DNA of 64,000 nt, taken from contig JAGIQG010000024.1 of NCBI GenBank assembly GCA_024679065.1, positions 22,692,001 through 22,756,000 on the forward strand. The letters run 5' to 3'. Positions 2,235-62,757 of the stretch are shown here, piece by piece (position 1 is the stretch's first letter; every line of letters starts with the position of its first letter). Position numbers and translations under genes: made by a program. The notes beneath the pieces are model-generated. The model searched no databases and was not told where the DNA came from. It saw only the letters and a program-made list of their open reading frames with translations. The stretch comes from Sphyrna mokarran. Lineage: Eukaryota.

Positions 2235-2577
2235 AAATCTCTTTTGTTTTTGCCAGATGAATTTTGAAGATATGTTTCCAAAATATACAAGAATTCAAAG
2301 GGGGCCAAAGGGTCAAAAATTGAGTCTTTGTAAAAGTGTACAACCATGACCTATTGGCCTACCAGATTGTCATTTCCCTGGATAAGGTTATTCTGAATGA
2401 GAATGTGCCCATGCATCTTGCTTTGAAACACAAAGTCAGCTGGGGAGCCAACGTAAAGAGTACGGAATGGTACAAGGCAGGAAAGAACAAATTGTTCTTC
2501 CAGAAGCACCGATTCTAATTTGTGTATTGGTTTAAATAAATATAAAAAACGGTTAGTTAAAATTTGCAAATTTTTTT

Positions 2578-2934
2578 TTAATTATTCATTTGTGAGACAT
2601 GGGTGTCACTGGCTGGCCAGCATTTATTGCCCATCCCTAGTTGCCCTTGTTCAGAGTCAATCATATTGCTGTGGCTCTGGAGTGACATGTAGGCCAGAAA
2701 AGGTAAGGATGGCAGATTTCCTTCCCTGAAGGATATTAGTGAACCAGATGCATTTTCCCAACAATGGTTTCATAATTATTAATTGGAATTGGACATTGGC
2801 TTAATTCCAGTTTTTTTTTTGTTGAATTCAAACTTCACCATCCGTCATGGCAGGATTCGAACCAAGGTCCTCAGAATATTAGCTGAGTCCTGGATTAATA
2901 GTCTAGCAATATACTAATAAGCCATCGCCTCCCC
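2578..2934 (-). mobile_element. tRNA-derived SINE with 'gggcaataaatgctggcc' tail
   Basis: Minus strand: tRNA-like head with B box ggttcgaatcc, core ccttcagggaaggaaatctgccatccttacc, tail gggatgggcaataaatgctggccagccagtgacacccatg; sister copies at about 21710-22115 and 22935-23228 (+). Confidence 0.75.
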
Positions 2935-3777
2935 AAATAAAAACAATTCTTTTTCCTTGGTGTAGAGGAAAGACAACAGGCAAATATTACTTAAAAGTAA
3001 TTGTTAGTCTTGAAATGAGGACCAAGAGTAAGAGTTCATCAGTGTTGGGGTAATCAGAATGTAATCAGACTAAATTTGTTTTTTCTCAGCATTTGTAATT
3101 AATATATACAAGTTTACCACTGTGAAACGTGATGGAATTTATCTGTAATTATTGCAACCATAAAGAGGAAGTTATGCAGTTGGAAATTTCAAAGGTTTAT
3201 CTCAGGGCTTGCCAATTAAAAAACTTAACAGTTTGCTAAGTCAAGTGTTCACATTACAGCTGCTTGAGCAGAAGAAATAATTAATATTCTAATTATGCAT
3301 AATTTTCAAAGACAAATTCCTAATGGGAAAGGGCTCCTTTAATACACAATATCAAAAGCCTCCTTTATATTACATCTCAAGTTCCCAATATCCTGCTGTC
3401 TGTATTCAACCTGCAACAGTGGAAGGGGGGCTCTGTGGGGAAAAGGCCACCTCACATTCAAACACTCAATGAAAAAAGACATCACAACAAGGCCTAAATT
3501 ATCTGGTGTCGTACACCCAATACTGCTGCCAGTGAGTGTGGAGAATTTGGCACTCAGCCAAATCTCCATTCACTGCAGCAGAACTGGAGAATCCCAGCCC
3601 CAGACAAGGTCAGGGATTTCCAACCCAAATGTTTTCATTTTTGGAAACAATTAAAAACTGCAAGGTCTGCTGCTTCCAACTGGTCACTATATATGTTTTT
3701 GTTGCCTTGTTTAATTATAATTTTCTTAAATAAATCTATCATTTTAATCTGAATGTTATGCTCTGATATCAGAATGG

Positions 3778-3930
3778 AATCATAGAATTCTAAATACAGA
3801 AGGAGGCCATTTGGCCCATCAAGCCTCCGCTACAGCAAGCTGACCCTATCCCCGTAACCCCACATATTTAGCCTGCTAATCCCCAATATTGAGGGGCAAT
3901 TTACCATGGTCAATCAACCTAACCCACACA
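3778..3930 (-). mobile_element. V-SINE (HE1-like) 3' half
   Basis: catagaattc...aggaggccatttggcccatc...gggcaatttaccatggtcaatcaacctaacc, same as other copies. Confidence 0.75.
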
Positions 3931-4448
3931 AATTGGCTGTTTGTTTCCATGTTCCAGTGTGGTCAGAGAGGAAGCTGACATTTCCTCTGGCAAAAAGAAT
4001 CTTTGCTAATTTAGTGTTGCAATACATTCATTCACAGCACCAACAAGAGGTGAGATTTTATGGGCAGGATTTTCTGAACACATCGAAACCAACGGATATT
4101 TGAATGATTCATTGTATTTTTAGACACACCCCTGTCGTGATGCAGGCTGTGAAATTCCACCCAAAATTACGTGCACAATATCATGGGGAATATATGCTTG
4201 TGTATACAGGTATGATTAAGGAAACTATCTTCTTGTGAACAGAGATGGGAGACAGTCACATTATAATTAATTTTCACGAATGTAGCCCACAATGGCACAT
4301 TGGTCATGAAAACTTCAAAGGATTATCCAGAGCAGAATTCTGAAATGAAATGCAAAGTGCTCTGCTGTACTTTGGTTCAACTGCCCTTATTGCTGGATGC
4401 TCTTAGAACAGAACATTTTTCTTGCCTTCCATTGCCACGTTTTTAATA

Positions 4449-4502
4449 TTGATATATATATATAGTGTATATATACACACATATCAATAAGTATATATTA
4501 TG
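4449..4502. repeat. Degenerate (TA)n microsatellite
   Basis: gatatatatatatagtgtatatatacacacatatc...gtatatatta. Confidence 0.7.
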
Positions 4503-5373
4503 TAATATTATTTCTTTATACCAGATGTATATTTACACATTCAAATGCTACAGAAAACACAGCTGGATATGAAAATATTTTATTAACAACTGCCAGTAAT
4601 AAACTGCTGTTTCTGCAAAACAGTTTCAATATAGAGTGATTGATGTAAGCATGCTGTACAAGTGGGACTGAAATTAATAATTGGCCTAAGGGGCAAAATG
4701 TCCCAACCTTTACACAGGTGCCTACTTTTTATTTTTTCTTAATTGTCACACTAACCTTCTAATTATTTTTGTTCAGTACTGGCAGGCGATTTGTCCTAGG
4801 TGATAAAGTACAAGTCTGCAGTATTAACAAATGTGTTTTTTTATTTTGACTGGTTGGTATTAACAACAGTAGCTAGAATTCTTTTGCCACTCAAACTTTA
4901 TAAATATAACATAAGGTATTTCTTGTAGGCCCAACTTTCAAAGGACTATAGAAAGATACAGCTTTCAATAAGTCATGTTTCTTTCTATGGTACATGTTCC
5001 TTAATGAATGAGTAGCTTGTTAATCTCAACTTTCTTACAACCTAAGAAATACTGAATTAACTGAGTTCTTTTAGGTGTCAATTCCCATCAAATCTCATCA
5101 GCCAAGGCAAAACATCAAAGCAAGCATTGACTCGACAGGTTCTATAGTGCAGAACCAGGATTGACTGCAGCAAATCTCAACTGTGAATAAAGTGAGCCAA
5201 TAGTTATCCATTTTCATTGGTGGATTGAGATTATCCAGTGATCCTTTTAAAATCTGAAAATTAAAGTGTCAAACAGAAGGTCTATTTTGAAATCTAATAA
5301 AATGAATATAATGTCCAACTCTTTTGTAGGTATTGAAGTGTGTGTGCGTTCCTTTACAGGAAAGTGTGTTTTT

Positions 5374-5650
5374 ATAAGTTTATTTATTAGTGTCACAAGT
5401 AGGCTTATATTAACACTACGATGAAATCACTGTGAAAATCCCCGAATTGTCATATGCAGGCACCTGTTCAGGTACACTGAGGGAGAATTTAACATTGCTA
5501 GTGCATCTAACCAGCACATCTTTCAGACTGTAAGAAAAAACCAGAGCACCCGGAGGAAACCCACACAGACACGAGGAGAACATGCAGACTCCACACAGAC
5601 AGTGACCCAAGCCAGGAATCAAACCCAGGTCACTGGTGCTGCTGTGCACA
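5374..5650 (-). mobile_element. V-SINE with alternative tail (tail B)
   Basis: Same head and core as HE1 but the tail on the minus strand reads ...ttcacagtgatttcatcgtagtgttaatataagcctacttgtgacactaataaataaactt. Confidence 0.85.
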
Positions 5651-6734
5651 GAACTAGGACACTGATTCCATATTAGGACTGTTCAGGCTTTGTTTAGGTT
5701 TGATCAATGTTACTTTAATGATTTTGCACATAGCTTCTCAATTTCTGCTGATCAAGTATTGCCCTCTCCCTGTAAAATAAGCACTTACTTTAAATATGCA
5801 TAACTATTTAAAAAAAGCAATAAATACAAAGAAATTGGATATGGAGAAATTATTTTCAAGTGACTGGAACAAATGTGTAGAATGCACAAGCTGAAAATGT
5901 ACAAGAATGTTTATTTCATGACTGAAGTTTTTGACTGAGGTAGCTGCTTCAGAAATTACATGTTAATTGATATTTTCGTACAGCTACAGTAGTTACTGTG
6001 CCAGCATTAACATATCTGCATGCATTTGGCAATCAGCACTCAGATTTGAACTTTACAACAGTCTTAATAATCTGTTTCAAACACAGTTTCATTGATTCAG
6101 TTCCTTTCTATTTTCAAAGCATCTTCTTTGACAGTAATATACGGTTTGATTTTCGCAAGGCGCAGTTTAGGAATAATTGCAGTCTTTCAGCTTTCATTAA
6201 GAGAGTGTAATCACGATCTCTGTTTTGATTTGTTCATTAGTGAAAAAGCAGTGTTTCCCACTTTATTATTGATTCTAAAAACAAATAGAAGACAATACAC
6301 TGCAGTATGAGGACCTTCCGAACATAGCTTCCTCTGAAAGGTCGTTATGTTAAATGTCAGTTAACACTGCAACAAGTGTTTTAACTATTTCCTTCATTAT
6401 TTCACAATTTTTGAAAAAAACATGCATTTAAAATTGCATCTTAAAATTAGAAATCACAGTAGTGCTACATCCGGCCTTAGGTTTATTGATGAGCATTGAT
6501 CCCTTCATAGATGAAGCTTGACATACCTCCTGTTTAGAACATCATACCAAAATTCTCTATGTTCTCTTCCAATATTTAATTATTATGTTGCTGTTGGTGC
6601 TGTTATTGGAAGAGATTACTATAATTTGCCAGATGTGTTTGCTTAATCTGTGTTAAATGTTCTGCAAAGTTGTCCCTACTTCAAAGTCTTAACAGTTTGT
6701 GGTAATATTGACCCAATAATGGAGGTTGCCATTG

Positions 6735-6931
6735 CCTCAAATGACCATAGGCTGCTCTCGACTTTGAGAGGGAGAGTTGACTGGTGGTGGTTTAATCTGA
6801 GGGTCACCACATCTCAGGTGAGGCATAAGGTTGAGAAGGAGGCCTTCTTGACTAACCTCAGCCCACATGGGAATTGAACCCACGCTCTGCGTCACCAATC
6901 AGCCATCAAGCCAACTGAGCTAACCGACCCC
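6735..6931 (-). mobile_element. tRNA-derived SINE (separate family)
   Basis: Minus strand starts gggtcggttagctcagttgg (A box)...gggttcaattccc (B box), body ...gtggtgaccctcagattaaaccaccaccagtc; a weaker relative lies at about 26815-26960. Confidence 0.7.
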
Positions 6932-7079
6932 AGTGATAGCACTTTAGTGTATGGCCATTTTGTATGATACAGCAAACAATAAGAGTTAAGGGACTGACAC
7001 TACTGATCAATAGTCCAAGTATCACAAAAACAGTGTATTAGATGCTGGTACAGCTTTACTCTCCTTGTATCAGAACACC

Positions 7080-7208
7080 ATGGATGGGTTTTCTGGCCAC
7101 GCTCGCCCCAATACCAAAAAATTCTGCCTGAGGACAATGAATCTTTGCATGGTCCTGTCCCATCAGCTACAATTCCCGTGGCAGGCTGGAAAGGAAAATT
7201 CTGCCCCT
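7080..7208. mobile_element. Short palindromic MITE-like element, family 2
   Basis: Core 'aaaat.c.gcc(c/t)gaggtcaatggacctttccatggtc....c.attcc(c/t)gtggcagg' with inverted ends; copies at about 14568-14692, 21408-21533, 23409-23537, 41992-42125 and 62642-62757. Confidence 0.7.
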
Positions 7209-9234
7209 CATGTTATAAGACTCACCGTTATTGTAATAACAAGAAACTAACTGTTGGAAGTGAAGATCCTCGTGGACATGAATGTGAAATTCAAGGTCAT
7301 GTGAACTTTGGACAAATTGAAACAGATTTTTACTTTCATTTGCAAACCTAGGAACAGGACATTACAAAATGTAAATATAAGATCATCATTCTCTGGTCTT
7401 GTTCGCCCTGCCATCAGGAACAGAGAATGTGGCGTCCAGTTAAAACTCCATTCACTGCAGCGAGATTGGAGAATTCCAGCCATGGGCAAGGTTGGAGAAT
7501 TCTGGCCTTTGTGTAACTGTGAACTTTTAACTGGGGAAATGATGTTTAAGCAAGTTCAGCAAAAACGTGCCAGCTAATTTGAAAGTGCGAATGATACTCT
7601 CACCCTTGTGATGAGCCAAATTCCCAAATACACTATTCAGGCTCCTGGATCATTGGATTGATTCTTCCATTGTTTATTAATCATCATTAATATATTAGTA
7701 GGCATGAATAAAACAGGAATCAGAAAGCCCAAGCTGAACTGGTATTCCTCCTAATTTGTAAAGCTGGACTTCACAAAACTTATTGGATGTCACCAAAACC
7801 ATAAAGACTACATAAACAGTTAGGGCCTAGATTACGGGCTGAGTTTTAAAAGGTGTATTGTTTAAAAAAAAAATGCTGTTTTACAGCCATAATATACGGG
7901 GAGTAGTCTTAACAAGGCAACTATGGGACTTCCACTCCTCAGGCAAAGGAAGTCCCACCCCTCCCGAGTGGCAGGGATGCCTGCGACTGTCACTACATGC
8001 AGCACCAAGGAGAAGATCCACAGCGAGCAGATACGCGTGTAGTTTTAGATCGTGGAGGGCCTTAGGCACAGGGAGGAGTTGGAGAGGGGTGGTGGGGGGT
8101 GGGGGGCGGTAGAGGAAAGAGATGCCAGGCATGGGGTTCCAAAGGCCTGATGGAGTTAGAAAAGAAGGGAGGTGGCTAACATCTTGAGGGGGTGTCCCCA
8201 ATGGGCACAGGGTCATTCCCACAACCCTCCCAATCCCCTAGAAGGAAGTACCTGAAGTGCTGATGCAGTGAGCAGGCACTCTTCATTCCACTTTTCCCAG
8301 CTGCAGGTTATTGTGCTGGTTCAGAACGAGATCCTTAATCACCCACTAACTGGCCAGGTGAGGACCTCAAAAGGCCTCGGGGTGGAAAGGCTGTCTGAAG
8401 CCTTACCCACCCACCATGTTATCAGGGACAACTCGGTGGGTGAGCAGGAAAGCAGTGAGTTAGCCACCAATCCTAATTTACATGCTCTAACCTACTCCAC
8501 CAATCCTCCCACTACTACTAGGTTGCAAATAACTTGGCTAGGAGAAGGCGGCTGGAAAACTTTTGTAAAATATTAGTTCAGCCCAATTCAAGGCTTACTG
8601 AAGCTTGTGATCTTGATAGTTCCCTAACATTTTACCTTGACTTTGCTCCCTTCCAATTTCTGTAAGCCCCAGTTCCCATCTTCTGATATGCTTGAAGAAT
8701 ATATATTTTCCTTTTGCTAAGCATTATTTTCAAAAATGTTTTTCTGACATATTGATAGATTTATTTGAAGTGAGGGAAATTTTGAATGTGAATGTCCTAT
8801 TATACTAAATTCTATATAAGCAAAACTCTAAGATAAAGTTCACTCTGATATGGATATTGGAGACATTGTTATAGTTTCAGGACAGATTTAGCCAGCAAAT
8901 ATTGTCAGCTTTTTAAACTTAAAAGTAAATACAAATGAATGCTTCTAAGCATGGAATGCATATTTTACAAAGTTTACATGACCATGTTGAAAGGCCAGCA
9001 ATAATTCCATCAATTCACTCCCTGCTGGTCACACAGAAGAGGCATAATGTTCCTTTTGAATTGGCAGGTTAGCTTCTGTCCCACTTTTTCAACTGTGGAT
9101 CAAATTCTTTGCACAATTTTTTCTTCTGACCTACTTACTCTCCCACCACACAAGAACTAATGATTACAATGCTGAATTCATGTTAGCACAGCAATAATGT
9201 CAAAACCACCTAAAAAACAGGTTTACCCTGTCGT

Positions 9235-9855
9235 TCATTTTGAGAGGACTGGAATACAAAAGGGGACTTGCATTACTGAGGCTTTATAAAGCTCTGGTCA
9301 GTCCACACTGGGGGAGCATCATGAGCAATTTTGGGACCAGTATCTAAGAAAGAATGTGCTGGTCTTGGAGAGGGTCAAAAGCAGGTTTGAGTATGATCCC
9401 AGGAACAAAAAGCTTGGTGTATGAGGAGCATTTGAGGACTCTGGGTCTGTACTTGATGCAGTTTAATAGCATGAGAGGGTATCTCATTGAAACTTACAGA
9501 ATACTGAAAGGCCTGGATAGAATGGACTTGGGGGAGATGTTTCCATTTCTAGGCGAGACTAAGATCCGTTGACACAGCCTCAGAATAAAGGGATGATCCT
9601 TTAGAATTGTGCTGAGGAGGAATTTATTCAGCCCAGAGAGTGGTGAATCTATTGAATTCATTGCCATAGAAAGTTGTGAAGGCCATTGTTGGATACATTT
9701 AAGACAGAGAGAGATAGGCTCAATTAGTAAGGGGATCAATAGTTATATGAAAAAAGCAGAGAATGGGGTTGAGATTTTGTCTCAACCCCATGGAACAGTG
9801 GAGCAGACTCAATGAGCCAAAGGCCTAATTCTGCCCCCATATTTTAAGGTCTTGC
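9235..9855 (+). mobile_element. CR1 (HER1-like) LINE 3' fragment
   Basis: ORF 9354-9572 contains YEEHLRTLGLY...MRGYLIETYRILKGLDRMD, the canonical CR1 ORF2 C-terminus; 3' UTR gactcaatgagccaaaggcctaattctgc. Confidence 0.9.
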
Positions 9856-10689
9856 TCTGCATCCAATGGCAGCACCTGCATCTTATAAAAGTTCAAATCA
9901 AATCCAATTCTAATTCAACTTGGATCAGTGTGAGCACCTTATTGGGGTGAACAATCTAACATGTACTGAACTAAATTATTGATGTTTTCAAAGAGGGAAA
10001 TATTACAGTTTAAGGAATATTTATTGGAACATGATAAAGTCAAGCTGGGATGAATCAAGGAATTATAAAACCGCATGCATAGGAGTTGTACCTTGTCCAA
10101 TTCCCAAATATACTTGGAGATGAAAACACATTCACTTCAGATTTCATGTTGTAAACCCTACATGAATATTTGATCACAAATATTCCTGAAACTGTGCATT
10201 TGTTACAAGACATTATTTCAGTTTAGCACAGATCATTTCTTCTACGTTGGAGGGGAGGGAGGGAGGAGGAATTTCCAGGACTTCCTCACAAGTACAATAA
10301 TAATTATCCATTACCTGGTCAACATTCCATTTAATCTTTTCATGCAACAGGACATCAACATAAAAATGAAAAGGCGGTGGCATCTGCCAGAAGAAAATGG
10401 ACAACCATTTCTTAAAGGACACACTGACCTTCAGGCTATAGCGTACTAAGAATTATCCTACTCTACAAAATCAAGCAATTTAGCCATTTTATATTTTAAG
10501 TAAAGTGTTACTCTTGTTAAGAATAGAGAAGTATCACAGATGGAAAAGGATTAGAAGGACATGGGCCAAATGAAGGCAGTTGGTTTAGCTGGGATGGCAT
10601 GGACTGGTTGGACCAAATAGCCTGTTTTCATGCTGCATTGCTCAATGATTGTGACTCTAACACAAATTCAGGTTGAACTTTTATACTTA

Positions 10690-11005
10690 AAAGTTTATTA
10701 GTCACAAATACTTACATTAACATTGCAATTAAGTTACTGTGAAAATCCCCTAGTCGCTACATTCTGGTGCCTGTTCGAATACGTTGAGGAAGAATTTAGC
10801 ATGGCCAATTCACACAACCAGCACGCCTTTTGGACTGTGGGAGGGTGGGGGTTGGTGTGGGGTGGGGGTGACCAGAGTACCTGGAAGGAATCCATACAGA
10901 CATAGGGAGAATATACAGACTCTGCACAGATGGTGACCCAAGCTGAGATTTGAACCCAGGTGTCTGGAGCTGTGAGGCAGCAGTGCTAACCACTGTGCCA
11001 CACTG
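10690..11005 (-). mobile_element. V-SINE, tail B, with an internal G-rich insert
   Basis: Full head/core/tail B; gggagggtggggttggtgtggggtgggggtg inserted at about 10840-10870. Confidence 0.85.
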
Positions 11006-12339
11006 TCACATGACATGGTATTCATTTGCTTTGCTTATGAATGTTGTGTGTAAATAATGCTAGGCTAGACTAATTAATGACTTAATGGTGTTTGTGATTC
11101 AGTACCTGGGGTAACAATCCTGCTCGAGATGGCTTTCCCTGGGAAAGCTGTTTACAATGAAGTCAGCCTGGTGTTGAGTGAAAGCAGAACGCAAAAAATG
11201 TGACCACTATTAAATGAGACAATACAATTTTACAATTCAGGTTTGTTTACAAGCGGGCAGAACATTCTGCCAGCTATCTTGTTACTAACAATAAAAGCAC
11301 TTGGGATTGTTCTAAATGGCTTTCTTTTTTGGGCAGGATGTACATTCTCTGGCAGTCTCTGCAGAGCTGTTTTTGCTTACATTACAGCCTCTGTCTGCAG
11401 AGGTGGTTATCAGGCATGTAGAGTCTCCAGCACAGCTCAGAGCTGCTGCTTTACTGTCAGCTGGCTGGGTATGTGCATGCACAAAGTGAATTGAGCTGGT
11501 CACAAGAGTTTTGTAGTTCTAGGTCTTGCCTTTACACCTAGGCAACAGTTCAGCTGACATTAAATGATTTGCATTTCTGCAATCAGGTATATTAAAGTGT
11601 TTATAAATTCAATGTGGGGTAATTCCATTGCCATTGCTTTTCAAAGAGAATAATTTCACATTGTTGCAACAATCACTTCTTTCTGTTTCATCTGAACTGA
11701 AGTAATCTTGTTATTTTTAGAGAATTATGTCACCACTGGGGGAATAATAATTTGGTTCAAAGTTCAACTGAGTTATGAGACAGAAAAATGGCAGTTTGAT
11801 TTTTCATATAAACTCCTTCACAAATAAATGGCCTTAAATAAATCAATCTGGGGTATCTTTGGGTGATATGTACTCTTAACTGCATTACCAAATGACTATT
11901 AGATAAATAGTCTGTAGTTTGTCAAGTGGTGAGGTCTTGCGATGCAGTGGGTAACGTCATTGTCTCTACATTTGAATCTCACTCCAGGCTTAGATGGCCA
12001 AGGAATCTGCATTCATAATTCAGGCAAACAATCCATGCATCAACCTGAAAATCCAATACATGCCAATGGCAGGCAGCAAGACTGGGAGATTTTCCTGTTC
12101 AGACATGTGATGTTGGACCCTCTACCATCACTATCCATAGCTCCAGACATGCATATATAAATGCATGTGGCTGCAGCAACCCAGACTCCTGGAATGAACA
12201 GTACCACCATTGCCAGGTTATCAAGTATGTTACAACCTATGACAAGGAACTAATTGAGCAATAACATAAATCAATGATGGAAGAGTTCCCTGTCATTCTG
12301 TAGTGAATATCAGCTATGAACTCTGTACGTGTCAATTAT

Positions 12340-12650
12340 AAGTTTATTTATTAGTGTCTCAAATAGACTTATATTAACACTGCAATGAAGTTAGTGTAAA
12401 AATTCCCTGGTCACTATACTCCGGTGCCTGCTCCAGGTACACTGAGCGAAAATTCAGCATGGTCAATGTACCAACACCTTTCGGACTGTGAAAGGAAACT
12501 GGAACACCCAGAGGAAACTGGAACACCCAGAGGAAACCCATACAGACATAGCGAGAACGTACAGACTCTGCACAGACAGTGGCCGAAGCTGGGAATCAAA
12601 CCCATCTCTGGCGTTATGAGACAACTAATCATTGCCACCCACATTGTGCC
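12340..12650 (-). mobile_element. V-SINE, tail B, with a 19-bp internal tandem duplication
   Basis: aagtttatttattagtgtc... tail; ggaaactggaacacccaga repeated twice at about 12494-12532. Confidence 0.85.
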
Positions 12651-13439
12651 TGGATTTGGTATTCTGATGCAGATAAAGAGAAAGAAATGCAAGACCAATT
12701 TGAACATTCCTTGTCAGGAATCTCTGAAAGTCCATGTTCTCTGGAGTAACTGGCCCCACAATGCAGAGAATTGCAACTTAAGAACATCCAACTTACAATT
12801 GGCTTCATCTTGTTTGGTGCACTGACATGTCGTACATGGAGCATAGCAAAGCTGATCTACTCTTAAAGCATTCAACCTCTTTTGAAATTACACTAGAACA
12901 TAGGGAGGGCTATTAATCCAGACTTTATTGTCTTCAGTGTGTGCATCTCCGAAAGAACAAAAAGGTCCACTTAACAAAAACTTATAAAAAATTGCTAAAA
13001 ACTGGATATTGCATCACCCGCTACAGCCACTAATCACCATGTTTTACTTCAGTGTTGATTTTGTTTAATCTCTCGCTCAGCCACCCTTTATATCAACTAT
13101 AGGAATCCAGGGCAAACTGATTCTTCTGTTATCAAAATATCTATAAAACCAAAGAAAACAATAAAATGTGTCATAATAGTTTGGAATGAAGTTTAACAAT
13201 AGGACAAATGGCAATATTTTACTCATGATTAAGCAGTCAAAGACTTGAGGATTATTGCAGCATTATAAATACAAAGATAAAACTGATCAGATGAATACTG
13301 TAACTTATAATATTTAGCATTTGTATGTGTATTTCTTTTTAATACCTACAATTGGGCTTTCAAGGTCACTTGCTTATTTAATGACGGTGGTTATTTTTAG
13401 GTTCTTCTAATGTCACACTAAACAAGAAGACAATTTTAA

Positions 13440-14163
13440 CGCTGTTAAAAAAAAAGTTTATTTATTGGTACAAGTCAGCAAATTACTGTGAAAATTCCCT
13501 AGTCGCCACACTCTGGCGTCTGTTTGAATACACTGAGGGAGGGTTTAGCATGGCCAATACACCTAACTAGCACATCTTTAGGTCTGTCGGACTAGACCAG
13601 AGCATCCAAAGGAAACCCATGCAGATAGGAGGGAAAATGCGCAGACTTCACACAAGCAGTGATCAGGGATGGGAATTCAATATGGGTCCCTGGAGCTGTG
13701 AGGCAGCAGCGTTAACCACTGTGCCACCATGCCGTCTACGTTAACTTGAAGCTAAGATTGAGTCTGTGATGTCTACGTATAAATGTGATCAAAAATTGAC
13801 CGATGAGCAATATTCTTTTGCTATCTTTTTTCACGTATTATTCAGTGATCTCTCACAGCACAAGGTCTTAAAGGCACAGGTTCCTCTAACATTTTCCCAT
13901 AGATATCCAGACCTTGTTGGATATCGTTGCCAATTGGTTCTGCTCACCTAGGCAAGTGCATGTTTGGCTTACCGAACCTTGAAAGCCCTTCCTAAAAAAT
14001 ATATATATATAAAAAAAGTAACGTCTGAGATACCTGAAGTTATAATCCAATGGAAAATATAAAATATCTGACAACTTTGCAAAAACCATGCAATAAAAGT
14101 AAAGCGTAGTCTGTTAACAAAAGCTTTTCTGTTAGTGAATGCTTGCGCTGGCCTTGTCCACCA
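13440..14163 (-). other. CLIC4: CLIC4 proximal 3' UTR (true end not determinable; may extend further left)
   Basis: Immediately follows the stop codon; U-rich on the sense strand. The first sense AATAAA I see is at 13466-13457, inside a SINE tail. Confidence 0.6.
13447..13735 (-). mobile_element. V-SINE, tail B, inside the CLIC4 3' UTR (sense orientation)
   Basis: Head cggcatggtggcacagtggttaacgctgctgcctcacagctccagggac; tail ends ...aataaataaacttttttttt. Confidence 0.85.
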
Positions 14164-38540: not shown

Positions 38541-39213
38541 AACTGCACTGCTCAGATCCTTGCATGTTAACAAAGATCTGTATACTGAAGGAGATGAATT
38601 AATTTCCTCATGGGTGCATGTGTTTCCACAGAGTGAGGAGAGGGGTTTCCAGCTAAAGAGGGAACCTGATCCTTGAGGAAAAGGTGAGCTGCTTCAAAAG
38701 ACAGGACCCAGCTGGCAAAGTGGATTCTAGGGAAGGAACCCAGATCAACTCAACTGGTGACCAAGTTCCAGATAGTCGAGCTGCATGGAGTATGTGGGCA
38801 CTGGGTTGTGGCTAGGGTGGTATAGCAATCTGAAATTCTGGGAGTGTCAGTGCTGAAAAGCTAGACTGGACCCGATCCAGCAAACCCACCAGGATCACAG
38901 GCCACAGATTTAAAAATTCATGCCGCCGTGCATCTGAGTTTGATGCAAAGTATGGCCATCATGTTCAGTTTCACTCATCTGGTTTGTTGGCAAACCTTAT
39001 GGAACAACATGAAACTAAGATGCCTATAAGTTATACATCACAACCACAACCACTACACTCTGCTGCTATTGAATGGATTTAATATTCCTTTCATCAATCG
39101 CACCTCAGAAAAGATGTTAATGAGACTCTTTTTGCAGGCTTTTCAATCTCTGTGCAATCTCATTTAATACTTTCCTTCATGTTTGCTTGGTCTGTTCTTT
39201 TCTTTCGTTCATT

Positions 39214-39552
39214 TCATAGAATCATAGAAATCCTACAAATGTAGAATGAGGCCATCTGGCCCCTCAAGTCTGCACTGACTACAATCCCACCCAGGCCCTA
39301 CCCCCATATCCTTACACATTTACCCACTAATCCCTCTAAACTACGCATCTCAGGACACTAAGGGGCAATTTTAGCGTGGCCAATCAACCTAACCCGCTTA
39401 TCTTTGGACTGTGGGAGGAAACTGGAGCACCTGGAGGAAACCGACACAGGCACAAGGAGAATGTGCAAACTCCATACAGACAGTGACCCAAGCCAGAAAT
39501 CGAACCTAGGTCCCTGGAGCTGTGAACCAGCAGTGCTAACCATTGTGCTATT
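39214..39552 (-). mobile_element. V-SINE (HE1-like), CR1 tail
   Basis: catagaatcatagaaatcctac...gacagtgacccaagccagaaatcgaacc...cagtgctaaccattgtgc. Confidence 0.88.
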
Positions 39553-42899: not shown

Positions 42900-43552
42900 A
42901 TCATAGAATCTGTAAGTGCAGAAGGAGGCTATTTGGCCCATCGAGTCTGCACTGACCACAATCCCACTCAACTTCTATCCCCATAATTCCACGCATTTAC
43001 TCTGCTAATCCTGCTAACCTACACATCCTGGGACACTAGCAGACAATTTAGCATGGCCAATGCACCTAACCTGCACAAGCACAGTGGTTAGCACTGATGC
43101 TTCACAGCTCCAAGGACCTGGGTCTGATTCCCGGCTTGGGTCACTGTCTGTGTGGAGTTTGCATATTCTCTTCCTGTCTGTGTGGGTTTCTTCCAAGTGC
43201 GCCGTTTCCTCCCACAATCCAAAGACATGTGGGTTGGGTTGATTGGCTACGCTAAAAAAATTGTCCCTTAGTGTCCTGGGATGCTTAGGTTAGAGGGATT
43301 AGCGGATAAAGTGCGTAGGGATATGGGGTAGAGCTTGGGTGGGATTGTGGTCGGCGCAGACTCAGTGGGCAGAAGGGCCTCTTTCTGCACCGTAGGGTTC
43401 TATGATTTATGATATTTGGACTGTGGGAGGAAACCTGAGTACCTAGAGGAAACCTACACTGACATAGGGAGAATGTGCAAACTCCACAAGAACAGTGACC
43501 CAAGCAAGATTCTTGGAGCTGAGAGGCAGCGGTGCTAACCATTTTGCTGTCC
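42900..43552 (-). mobile_element. V-SINE (minus) interrupted by a full-length V-SINE on the plus strand (about 43078-43412)
   Basis: The host reads ...cctaacctgcaca | (insert) | tttggactgtgggagg..., which is contiguous in other copies (cctaacctgcacatctttggactg). Confidence 0.9.
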
Positions 43553-57429: not shown

Positions 57430-57555
57430 CTGGGTGGAGCCAGGATATCCTCAAGGAATTCCTCAATCTTATTGACATCGGTTTTCACCTCTCCATTGAA
57501 GGTTATGAATGGGGGGTGTGTTCCCGGAGCCAGATTTTGCAGATCAGCGGGTTTC
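57430..57555 (-). CDS. CLIC4: CLIC4 internal coding exon (equivalent to human exon 3), 126 bp
   Basis: Minus strand translates (R)[41 protein letters not shown](R), near-identical to recalled human CLIC4 [42 protein letters not shown]. Flanked by ...ctcaacAG acceptor and GTaagt donor. Not in the ORF track; read manually. Confidence 0.97.
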
Positions 57556-57937
57556 CTGTTGAGTTAGAAAGACAGAGAATCAGTTACCATCAGCAAAATA
57601 ACTGGATAGCTGCAATACATCATGAAATCCATAGAGAGGGAACAGAGTATTCGCACAGTGGGCAATGCAGCAATCTGTGTTAGTGTCTCACAAACAGACC
57701 AGGCAAGGCCCTGGTTCCTTCGTGTTGCATTCCATTGATGCATTGAGCTCTGCCACGTGATCCATTACTTGACACCTGCTGGCAACACTGGCCAGCTTCC
57801 TCTGCCAGCCACCATCTGTCCCTGACACTGAGCAACATCCAACAAAAGAAAACATGGAGATATTCTATCTTGATACTGTAGTGTGACAGGACTGTCACTA
57901 TAGAATGATTCTACTTTTAATTTTTCAAGGATATTTG

Positions 57938-58240
57938 GGGTGGCACAGTGGTTGGCACTGCTGCCTCACATCACCAGGGACTTGAGTTCAATTACAGCCT
58001 CAGATGATTGTGCGGAGTTTTCATATTCATAGCATGACTGCATGGGTTTTCTCCTACACTCCAAAATGTGCAGGGTTAGATGCATTGGCTATGCTAAATT
58101 GCATTTAGTGTCAGGGGGATTAACAAAATAAATACATGCGGTTGTGGGGATGGGATCTGTGTGGATTGTTGATGGTGCAGGCTCAAAGGACCAAATGGCC
58201 TCCTTCTGCACTGTAGGGATTCTATGATTGTTCTATGATC
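57938..58240 (+). mobile_element. V-SINE (HE1-like), CR1 tail
   Basis: gtggcacagtggttggcactgctgcctcac...gagttcaatt...aatggcctccttctgcactgtagggattctatga. Confidence 0.88.
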
Positions 58241-59196
58241 TCTGGAGTTAGATGGGAGCACAGCGAGAAAAGGGGTAAGTAGCAAAGAGTCACAAGGACC
58301 CTGCATGTTTCTAGTTGCTGTTTCTTCAAGACTACTTTACACAATGCAAAAGCAGTATTAAAGAGGCCTATGTATATCCTATAAATGGTGGGTAATAATA
58401 AAAGCATTGTTCACGTGACATAATGCAAAATATAGGACCTTGTAATTTGGAAGGTCTCAGTGCTGCCAATGTTTGTGAAAAAGAATACTATTTAAGTAAT
58501 GTACTGAAAAAAGGAACTCAAAAGAAAAATCAATTCACCAGTTTAATTGTAATCAGCAGACTTCACATTATAGAAGAATAATTATTTTCAAGAAGTTGTA
58601 AATATTCCATTTGTTTTAATTGTTAATTCTTCCCCATGAATTTTAATTTGCATCGTTAAATTGATTTGCCTCTGTTCTCCGATAATATAACTGTACTAAG
58701 GATAGGGTACACATGGTTAAAGGCATTGGGACACCCCCACATTTAAAAAGGGAAGTATTGCATTCTTCAAAGAAAGCACGCCAGAGTTAGCTTGAAAACA
58801 TTTGATCAAGAGTTGCAGGTACATGAAAAGAATCTAGAGATGGTCGCAGAATGGTCAGTTTAAAAGGACCCAATGAAAGATGAGAGGAAGTCGAATCAGA
58901 ACTATGGTAAGACACGATAGCGGCAATCTTTCTTTCAATGTGCCTTATGGGACATCCAGAGATAAACTGCGAGTGGTGAATCACTGAATTTTTCTGGTCT
59001 GGACACCATCTCAGCCCAGATCCACATCACCAGAGCTTTCAATAGGGCTGCAGAATAGAAATATAAATGCAGCTCAACGCCTCTTCTTGAACGCCAGTAT
59101 GGAGCTGTGCTGACTGTTTCCATCAAGCATATCAAAACTGCAGCATCTGCTTCTTCCAATACTTCAATGGGCTGGATTTTATCGGATGTGCGTCCG

Positions 59197-59338
59197 CTCT
59201 TGCTTGCCCCAAAAAACAATTAGAATTGAATTCAATTCATGGTCCCCACAAGAGAGACATACAAGATCTAGACTGACAAGAAAAGGTATTGCACCTGACC
59301 TTGGGCTTATCTGACATTTGATCTTAGCCAAAAAGGCC
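59197..59338 (-). pseudogene. U2 snRNA-derived sequence with a 22-nt insertion in the branch-point recognition region
   Basis: Minus strand ggcctttttggctaagatcaaatgtcag[ataagcccaaggtcaggtgcaa]taccttttcttgtcagtctagatcttgtatgtctctcttgtggggaccatgaattg...gttttttggggcaagcaagag aligns to recalled U2 GGCCTTTTGGCTAAGATCAAGTGTAG|TATCTGTTCTTATCAGTTTAATATCTGATACGTCCTCTATCCGAGGACAAT...GGATTTTTGGAGCAGGGAG. Confidence 0.8.
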
Positions 59339-60159
59339 ATGGGGACCTGGCCTTAACCTAGTTGCCCTCCATATGTTAGTAGCTTGCAAGCATTTGCCAT
59401 TTCAGACTTACTCTTGAGCTCCAATAATGCCTTTATAAACGAACATCAGCAAAGTCAATATCAGGATGATATTCAGTGGAGGAGTTATTGGAAAGTTGCC
59501 TGTTCACAAACATATTTACAGTTCAGCAAAGCATAGCTTACCGAGAAGGGGTAGTGGAATTAAGTGAAAGGATCAGTCCTAATTTGCAATTGAAATTCAT
59601 TGATTTAGAAACCTGACAAGTTACAGACTTTAATCTGAGCCCTAGTCTCCAGTCCTCCAAATCTATTTTGACATGTGTGCCTGGAGTTGAAAATTAATAT
59701 TTTATCCATGCAGGTGTACTTAAAATCTGACAATGGATATTTTATTGCTTAGCACCAGGGTTCAGATAGTCATTTCATAATGACCAAATTCTTCTTGTTA
59801 GCTCTGTACAAGCGGTTTGTGTGTACCGCAATGTAATTGACAATTAGTCTGTGATGTCACTAATTAGGAAACTCCTACCCTGTTCAAAGTACATTTTAAA
59901 CATTGATCAGCTTTTATTTTCATCATGCAAATGACCGTGTTTTTAAAAAGACAGCAAAAATAATTCTAAAACGGCAACTGAGATCACAGAAGGATCACAG
60001 AGGGAAAGATCAACAGGGAAATTAAAGACTGAACACACAGCTAGAAAATATTCAGGAAGATTAAGCAGAGACAAAGAAACAAGTGGCATCACAATCAGTT
60101 GAAAGGTAAGTTCTAGCATGTATTGAAAATTTATTTTTAAACATTAAATAACTCTAAAA

Positions 60160-60742
60160 TAGTACAGCAGCCAGTAAAGGGGGTAAATGGTATGCTGGCC
60201 TTCATAGAGAGAAGATTCGAATATAGGAATAGTTTTACTGCAATTGTATAGGGCGTTGGTGAGGCCATACCTGGAGTGTTGGGTGCAGTTTTGGTGTCCT
60301 TATCTGAGGAAAGATGTCTTTGCTACAGAGACAGTGCAGCAAAGGTTTACCAGGCTGATTCCTGGGATGGCAGGTCTGTCATATGGAAACTAAATAGGTT
60401 AGGATTATATTCAGTGGAGCTCAGAAGAGTGAGTGGGGATCTCAAGAAGCTTATAAAATTCTAATAGCATTAAACATTCAGAAAGGTTGTTCCCAATGGT
60501 GGGGGAGTCCGGAACTAGGGGTCATACTTTGAGGATAAGGGGTGAACCTTTTTGGAAGGAATTGAGGAGAAATTTCTTCACCCAGAGGGTGGAGAATGTG
60601 TGGAATTAAGAAGAAATCAGGATATTGCTCTTGGGACTAAAGAAATCAGGATATTGAATTTGATGATCAGCCATGATCAAAATGAATGGCGTTGCAGAAT
60701 CAAAGGGCTGAATGACCTACTGCTGCTTCTCGTTTCTATCTG
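60160..60742 (+). mobile_element. CR1 LINE 3' fragment
   Basis: LLQLYRALVRPYLECWVQFWCPYLR..., LNRLGLYSVELRRVSGDL, actaggggtcatactttgaggataagg; CR1 3' UTR. Confidence 0.88.
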
Positions 60743-60849
60743 AAGTTAGCAGCTAGTTTTTGGCAGTTTGTGAGGGAAAATTAAAGGGAATATTCACGAA
60801 TGGGTGGAGACTATATGATTAGTCCTGTTCCCACAAATTCTTATCCTGC

Positions 60850-61495
60850 ACTAGTTTTTGGAGACAATTCTGAGCAACTTTGTGACACAGGACTCTGTGT
60901 TCTAAGGGCATTTCCAAGGGATATGCATCGAGATAAACATCAGCTGCGGCTGAAAGATCACCACCTCGGTGAAAGATGCCCTTTGGTCCGCCTGAAACTT
61001 GGTCTTCCAGTACAAAGAGATGTCCCTGACCGAGTGTTGCAGACTGGCACATTCCAAAGCCCAGGACCACATGCTGAGGGATGCACTAAAGATTGGGGCA
61101 GCTGCTGCAGAGGCACAATGGGGAAAGGTCATCCTATGTTAAAAGCAGAAATTGATAGATTCCTGATTAACAATAACGTAAAGGGTTGTGGCGGATAGTT
61201 GGGGTAAAAGGCATTAAAACCAGCCATGATCATACTGAATGGCGGAGCAGGCTGAATGGTCTGCTTCTGTTCCTATAATCTAGGCAGGCAACCTAAATAC
61301 CATTGCACGATTTGTAATGATGATTTTGAAATGCCTGTAAAGTTCGTTTGATCGTACTGAAGTCTCTGAGAGAGCAACATAATCTAAGTTGGAAACCTGA
61401 ATATTATTGCACTTTGTTTGATGGTCAGTTTGAAATGTTTGTAAATCTCTTTCAACTATTTTACAAATAAAGTACACTTTTGTAACAAAGAAAAA
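60850..61495 (+). mobile_element. Tx1/L1-group LINE 3' end, split by a CR1 tail (about 61135-61280)
   Basis: Manual frame: VTQDSVF*G...INISCG*KITTSVKDALWSA*NLVFQYKEMSLTECCRLAHSKAQDHMLRDALKIGAAAAEAQWGK, typical of the Tx1 ORF2 C-terminus (K.AIW..RN); AT-rich 3' UTR with AATAAA near 61467 and an A-rich end. Confidence 0.7.
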
Positions 61496-62190: not shown

Positions 62191-62757
62191 CGAATGTTAT
62201 GCATAATTACTGTTTCCTAAGCAGTCCTTTCGTCAAACATCTTCAAAACATGCTTCTTCTAGCTTTCAGTTTCCAATGCTGATCCATGCAATCATTAGAT
62301 CTGTACAGATGTTATCAATGGAAACATTCATATGTCAATTATCCTTTTTCTCCCTTGTGATTTTAATGATTCTTTTTCGTTGCTTTCCCCATTGACTTTC
62401 TCAGCCAGTTAACTTGTGTGGCTTTGCTGAGTCAATGCTTTAATTGGATCAATATAAGAAACATGAAACAGACTATGCCAACCTTAAATACATTCAGCAA
62501 CAGAGCACAAGTCTCTGAGTCAGAGAGCTCTGAAGATTCACAACCCTTTGAGTGAAGTAGTATCTCTCCATCTCAGTCTGAAATGATTACCTCTTCTCCT
62601 CAAACTTCACCCCAGCATGATATCCTCTGCAGTGGACTCATAGGGCAGGATGTTTTTGTCTTGCTCGGTTGAGACTAGAAATTCCCTTCCAAGATTTCTA
62701 TTGTCGGGCCTTTGCCTGCTCCGATTCCATGGAGAGTGAGATGGTAGAGTTCTTGCT

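Follow-up and report, generated by a model that had tools for sequence, protein, structure and literature searches.

We identified a U2-derived relic of about 145 bases on the minus strand in an intron of a shark CLIC4-like gene, with one clear copy in the window (the whole 64-kb stretch of DNA that was analyzed). This relic is probably an old, 3'-truncated copy of an abundant, dispersed and double-headed repeat derived from U2, spread from one or a few master RNAs by means of a LINE reverse transcriptase. Many genomic copies, in four organisms, share its doubled head and its changed branch-point-pairing sequence.

Structure and U2 ancestry of the intronic element

The element as a whole occupies 59193..59338 (minus strand, as are all of its parts), a span delimited by a profile match (nhmmer, E=1.2e-5) and by contig depth that is elevated solely in bins 59197-59358; its 3' border is imprecise and falls between 59199 and 59193. 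Read along the minus strand, U2 nt 11-34 is followed by a 7-nt spacer and then by U2 from nt 19 onward. The head, comprising stem I and the U6-pairing region (59314..59338), is nearly unaltered, being identical in 23/25 columns to three vertebrate-like U2 genes, which are not shark U2; its T run holds five T in the sequence, not the four given in the initial annotation. The spacer, recognized from the sequence (59307..59313), separates this head from a second, diverged copy of U2 nt 19-36 (59289..59306), which leads into a U2 body of nt 37-104 (59222..59288) where the stem IIa region has decayed and the stem IIb hairpin is retained. The last part (59193..59221), delimited by sequence and folding, consists of a T run resembling an Sm site (59216-59211) and the onset of the stem III 5' arm, within which the window copy stops without poly(A).

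As a U2 reference set we used 48 loci from a scan of prokaryote assemblies, 45 of which cover the full span and yield 25 distinct sequences; all 20 of the 48 that were tested are U2 by Rfam, at 119-192 bits. A profile of the 25 genuine U2 genes, run with nhmmer against the whole window, gave the match quoted above at 59338-59222. The part 3' of the extra bases, taken alone, matches in 45-50 of 68-72 columns when aligned to the three vertebrate-like U2 genes, and none of 2000 shuffles reached the same score in each of three tests. Because the profile match and this downstream match agree, the U2 ancestry of the element past its first 25 nt is real. From 59306, the body aligns without a break to U2 nt 19 to about nt 104 (58/88 columns). 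The initial annotation had read the minus strand as collinear with U2 from stem I to the Sm site, and this holds from nt 11 to about nt 104 but fails at the Sm-like run, which lacks the preceding A. It had also proposed a search with the Rfam U2 model, RF00004, which scores below threshold: 281 nt around the element scored 13.4 bits (E 1.5), where the cut-off is 46 bits, the 3.5 kb from 57500 to 61000 gave nothing at E<=1, and no Rfam family reached its gathering score in the 64-kb window. The U2 likeness is carried instead by the 25-gene profile.

Two further likenesses to the U2 branch-point region, at 26401-26324 (minus strand; nhmmer E 0.044, the next best in the window) and at 62557-62585 (plus strand; E 2.1), are either chance matches or very old fragments. 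The 48 exact U2-head matches in prokaryote assemblies (L037-L084) include several tandem arrays, and some of them lie beside 5S rRNA, U5 or tRNA genes; these loci appear to be eukaryotic contamination.

The initial annotation described a 22-nt insertion in the branch-point recognition motif. There are indeed 22-23 extra bases on the minus strand near the branch-point-pairing region, but they are not an unrelated insert: they repeat U2 nt 19-36 in diverged form, and contain no foreign DNA. In the register set by the downstream alignment, the 22 bases agree with U2 nt 15-36 at 13/22 positions, a result equaled by 88 of 200,000 shuffles at that fixed register; when the bases may align anywhere along U2, the likeness is weak (13/22 is reached in 226 of 5000 shuffles). 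Over the 18-nt core, 12 positions are identical to U2 nt 19-36, and five of the six differences are transitions. The Rfam alignment likewise places U2 nt 17-38 onto the extra bases, not onto the head, and the second copy crosses nt 38/39 without interruption. GUAGUA is retained in neither head copy.

The stem I of the head folds (-6.5 kcal/mol) and the stem IIb region forms a hairpin (-5.4 kcal/mol), while the stem IIa region has no fold (0.0 kcal/mol) and the Sm-like T run at 59216-59211 has no A in front of it. The window copy lacks the features expected of a functional U2 gene (an RF00004 score of at least 46 bits and an intact GUAGUA, stem IIa, Sm site and 3' stems). A scan of 660 nt upstream for octamer motifs found a single octamer-like match at 592 nt upstream, away from the approximately 220 bp upstream at which the distal octamer element of U2 genes is expected (PMC4494074, in its accessible text). 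Since GUAGUA is lost from both copies, the master RNA is predicted to be incapable of splicing work, and the window copy is likely an inert fossil.

The host gene was recognized from a CLIC4 exon with approximate borders 57430..57556 (minus strand), which has the CLIC motifs in order and matches Pfam CLIC-like_N at E=3.3e-16. The intron upstream of this exon holds the element, which has the same sense as the gene, as the initial annotation had stated. Another CLIC4 exon is 97% identical to whale-shark CLIC4-like and 85-89% identical to named tetrapod CLIC4, which points to a shark as the host. The recognized part of the gene spans 25970-57556 (minus strand), including an intron of roughly 25 kb between the exons at ~57430 and ~32490; a motif search found no first exons of CLIC4 within the window. 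About 1.5 kb from the element, on the opposite strand, a LINE fossil at ~60860-61140 interrupts the broken 3' end of another LINE at 60100-61250 (plus strand); we take the interrupted LINE end to be CR1-like, and the interrupting one Tx1-like. An Atlas search with this neighboring fossil gave no match, and nothing ties the fossil to the U2 element. The window also holds an abundant repeat of ~330 nt in about 25 places (for example 39211-39549 and 43078-43415), its copies 65-83% alike, which is presumably a shark tRNA-headed SINE.

Copies of the element in four organisms

Part of the surrounding 1.7 kb is contained in 22 public sequencing runs, of which four, from four organisms and four studies, form the basis of the contig analysis. 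No RNA run is listed among the 22, which speaks neither for nor against expression. Contigs were aligned to 58900-59700 at 80% likeness; the window may itself derive from run X1, and the other three are independent. The four runs yielded 1339, 1690, 1414 and 1724 aligned contigs, with a summed depth of 33,377-70,058 at 59224-59250 versus 4-16 in the flanks. The resulting middle-to-flank ratio of about 2,500-14,000 is not a copy number, as one copy may yield several contigs; as an order of magnitude, we infer that the copies number in the thousands. Depth is raised solely over the element bins, and on either side the sequence is single-copy as far as the U2 borders. Over the head (59305-59331) depth is 373-794, far below that of the middle, which 5' truncation and alignment breaks fit equally well.

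The structure of the window copy recurs in these paralogs. In all four runs, contigs run colinearly from ~59224 to 59335 with the duplication included, one example being X1 record 4, which covers 59224-59335 with 13 other letters and two gaps. No joint among those listed skips the extra bases at 59289-59310, and at seven element positions, among those listed, the majority letter departs from the window identically in 4/4 runs. The loose ends of contigs that break off at 59308, 59267/8 and 59224-9 have concordant consensuses across runs: those at 59308 (43-67 contigs per run) read as a near-perfect U2 head, and those at 59267/8 give the identical altered branch-point arm in every run. Between 13 and 21 contigs per run insert one base behind 59308, and this extra spacer base creates, in other family members, a third short GATCA unit. 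The initial annotation had suggested, as an alternative, that an inactivated U2 gave rise to a repeat or snRNA-variant family in sharks, to be sought as copies with the same insert and diagnostic substitutions; both expectations are borne out, with more than 1,300 contigs in every run, many of them colinear through the extra bases, and with shared majority letters.

Other contigs depart from the window at 59199 (20 in X2, 31 in X5) and continue as a stem III hairpin, fully paired (GGGGC-TT-GCCCC) within the first 30 letters of these loose ends. Longer family members therefore exist, and the window copy is 3'-truncated. The loose ends at 59199 and 59308 have a median length of 233-255 letters, of which the first 30 are visible. 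We considered that most copies might end at the Sm site, where loose-end agreement is 0.48-0.67, and set this aside, since T runs of differing length would lower the agreement just as much.

In contigs of 1.2-2.5 kb the match is confined to the element, and a self-BLAST of the 64-kb window found no second copy of it; these observations point to a dispersed repeat, not a satellite. The CLIC4 copy itself is also found outside the window's source. Contigs from organisms B, C and F contain flank plus element at 88-94% identity and enter the element from both sides, and X5 record 32 (59239-59683) joins the upstream flank to the duplication. The orthologous intronic copy is thus present in three other organisms, its whole stretch being covered by several contigs and by no single one, and because it occupies the same place in all of them the insertion is older than the split of the four organisms.

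Origin of the family and competing explanations

The copies are short, dispersed, sharply bounded and derived from an RNA gene, and for these reasons we favor LINE-mediated copying from a master RNA: one or a few masters were likely copied by a LINE reverse transcriptase, as with the crocodilian SINEU elements. Retrotransposition is suggested by the dispersal of the family, whereas the window copy, old and 3'-truncated, lacks its usual marks. The search for a tail found neither poly(A) nor a LINE-derived sequence there, and no target-site duplication flanks the borders, the sole candidate being a 9-nt pair with one mismatch, distant from them. The master probably arose when a new 5' fragment of U2, extending to about nt 34, was added to a U2 body that had already diverged and begins at nt 19. 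The likelier route would be template switching by the reverse transcriptase, as has been proposed for the recurrent U2 heads of SINEU-1 (PMC4494074, in the part available), and tandem duplication within a spare U2 gene would be an alternative route to the doubled head. Identity to U2 is 23/24 in the head versus 58/83 in the body (Fisher p=0.007), for a head that is the best-conserved part of U2 and references that are not shark U2. Compared like for like over nt 19-34, the head retains 15/16 and the second copy 11/16 (p=0.17). Because this contrast is not significant and the references are not from sharks, the doubled head may instead be a plain tandem duplication. As U2 has no internal promoter, and none has been reported for snRNA genes (PMC4494074, accessible text), Pol II transcription of the master would have depended on a promoter upstream of it, either of U2 type or supplied by the host.

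Another explanation is that the host maintains an expressed variant U2-like gene with its own snRNA promoter, and that the copies are its passive, tailless retropseudogenes. The folding of stems I and IIb in the window copy and the complete pairing of stem III in other copies are consistent with such a gene, and tailless, 3'-truncated snRNA retrocopies, which the window copy resembles in lacking a tail, are a known class (described in the available portions of PMC5322556 and PMC4476161). We nevertheless regard it as unlikely: both head copies lack GUAGUA, stem IIa is unfolded and the Sm-like run has no A, a near-intact, promoter-bearing master was not seen, and tailless forms were limited to therian mammals and the anole among the vertebrates screened by Noll et al. 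(PMC5322556, as far as its accessible text goes). There is at best a slim chance for a bolder version of the retroposon, one that evolved independently in sharks and whose master is to this day a capped, promoter-driven U2-like RNA. Such an RNA would retain three stems (I, IIb and III) and combine a doubled U6-pairing head with a rewritten branch-point arm, and might have a role as variant snRNA or decoy besides giving rise to thousands of genomic copies.

The U2 segment might also be one part of something larger, for instance by heading a Tx1 LINE at its 5' end or riding as a passenger in a non-autonomous DNA transposon, or it might be a U2-derived satellite, with the window copy as a remnant. 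A LINE of this kind, Tx1-11_Crp, does bear a U2 head (PMC4494074), U2-derived satellites are known in Ciona (PMC4640811), each according to the sections available, and the length of the loose ends at 59199 and 59308 would leave room for additional sequence. This seems improbable to us, given that the flanks are single-copy right to the U2 borders, that 59100-59450 contains no inverted repeats and that the 64 kb hold one copy. LINE copies, moreover, usually lose their heads and not their bodies.

The initial annotation had offered, as one of two readings, a Keno or Utopia insertion here that is extremely truncated or survives as a footprint; this is very improbable. The junction does lie ~4 nt or less from the Keno/Utopia site, and the target duplications of reptile Utopia are 20 bp long (PMC4640811, in part). 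In published insertions of both elements U2 nt 39 comes next (same source), so that a target duplication would be expected to start at nt 39. Here U2 resumes at nt 19, nt 38/39 is unbroken, and the extra bases are U2-derived, in U2 register and family-wide; a Utopia-type 20-bp target duplication was rejected for the same misfit of position. Finally, an ordinary single-copy U2 pseudogene with a private insertion, which one clear copy in the window might suggest, is ruled out for practical purposes by the 1,339-1,724 contigs per run and by diagnostic letters common to four organisms.

Comparison with known systems

Pattern scans for the family outside sharks covered several collections. Prokaryote genomes gave 0 loci; metagenomes gave one locus, upstream of an 18S rRNA gene, that is not U2 by Rfam. 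Viral contigs gave 27 loci in one scan, of which four are U2-like by eye, all four without the duplication; other scans gave 0 loci and eight loci, the eight matching at a 20-21-nt seed only. At 600-690 of the metagenome contig L028, a short sequence similar to U2 nt 19-35 occurs three times, ~540-630 nt before a eukaryotic 18S rRNA begins, and Rfam recognizes the 18S there and no U2. The small IMG/VR viral contigs L013 (at 286-330), L009 and L024 (1767, 1770 and 1862 nt), and also L003, have a near-perfect U2 head (~nt 1-42) followed by unrelated sequence. The U2 heads of the small viral contigs score 25.8-49.7 bits with the Rfam U2 model, and 3/3 are exact matches. In L013 the head sits between two converging frames, which by likeness we take to be the end of a circovirus-type Rep and a capsid; Pfam gave no support for the Rep-like piece.

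A literature search, with most subscription journals outside its reach, found no description of a U2-derived shark family. The main text of the chondrichthyan SINE paper does not contain the term snRNA (PMC5499810), and the main texts of shark and ray genome papers, as far as accessible, report no such family (PMC12498223, PMC9826928 and PMC12946260), whose supplements may list repeat classes. In their available portions, a review assigns SINEU to crocodilians (PMC5381603) and a later SINE paper names SINEU without mention of sharks (PMC5786205). There is a real, if minority, chance that the family is already cataloged in Repbase or Dfam under another label. Since the copies score below the Rfam threshold and are marked by a diagnostic doubled head, shark genome annotations have probably mislabeled or overlooked them. 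Orthologous insertions like the CLIC4 copy could serve as presence/absence markers in shark phylogeny, and the abundance of the family, probably thousands of copies in each of several genomes, allows a search for the master locus, for its promoter and for the partner LINE.

Several known systems share part of this pattern. Old, dispersed short repeats are represented among cartilaginous fish by the CmiSINEs and SacSINE1, which differ in having tRNA heads and L2 tails (PMC5499810, accessible text). Keno (Tx1 clade) and Utopia likewise have a junction near the branch-point-pairing region, but they carry sequence of their own with U2 nt 39 after it, and the shark element has neither (PMC4640811, in part). 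Tailless, or Group III, U2 retropseudogenes are similarly 3'-truncated and without poly(A); they are independent copies of normal U2, whereas the shark copies share a rearranged and diverged master (PMC5322556 and PMC4476161, each in the sections available).

The closest likeness is to the crocodilian SINEU elements, known here from the accessible text of Kojima 2015 (PMC4494074), which reports that they are mobilized by Tx1-Mar, that old copies have occasional target-site duplications, and that SINEU was not found outside crocodilians. In SINEU-1 and SINEU-2, 5' pieces of U1 or U2 have been added repeatedly, with partial duplications within them, as in the doubled shark head; these families have U1 heads or non-U2 bodies, while the shark element is U2-derived throughout its visible part. 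SINEU-3, with about 1,600 copies, is a short, high-copy repeat that is mostly U2, lacks an internal Pol III promoter and has one rearrangement common to its copies, from which its family status was argued. It has lost ~50 bp internally, ends in a poly(A) tail and prefers Mariner-N4_AMi; the shark family has a 5' duplication, a tailless window copy and a shark host. Membership in SINEU-1, SINEU-2 or SINEU-3 was rejected accordingly, as those are crocodilian and structurally different, with a deletion where the shark element has a duplication and a CLIC4 exon 97% identical to that of the whale shark.

Three of the features by which SINEU is recognized, an snRNA-derived head, high-copy dispersal and a rearrangement common to the copies, are found in the shark family. 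By analogy, this family is likely the shark counterpart of the crocodilian snRNA-derived jumping elements and apparently a second, independent origin of a SINE-like element of this type. The SINEU study did not settle how these elements are transcribed when they lack an internal promoter (PMC4494074, accessible text), and an independent shark family would show that the route from snRNA to SINE is repeatable.
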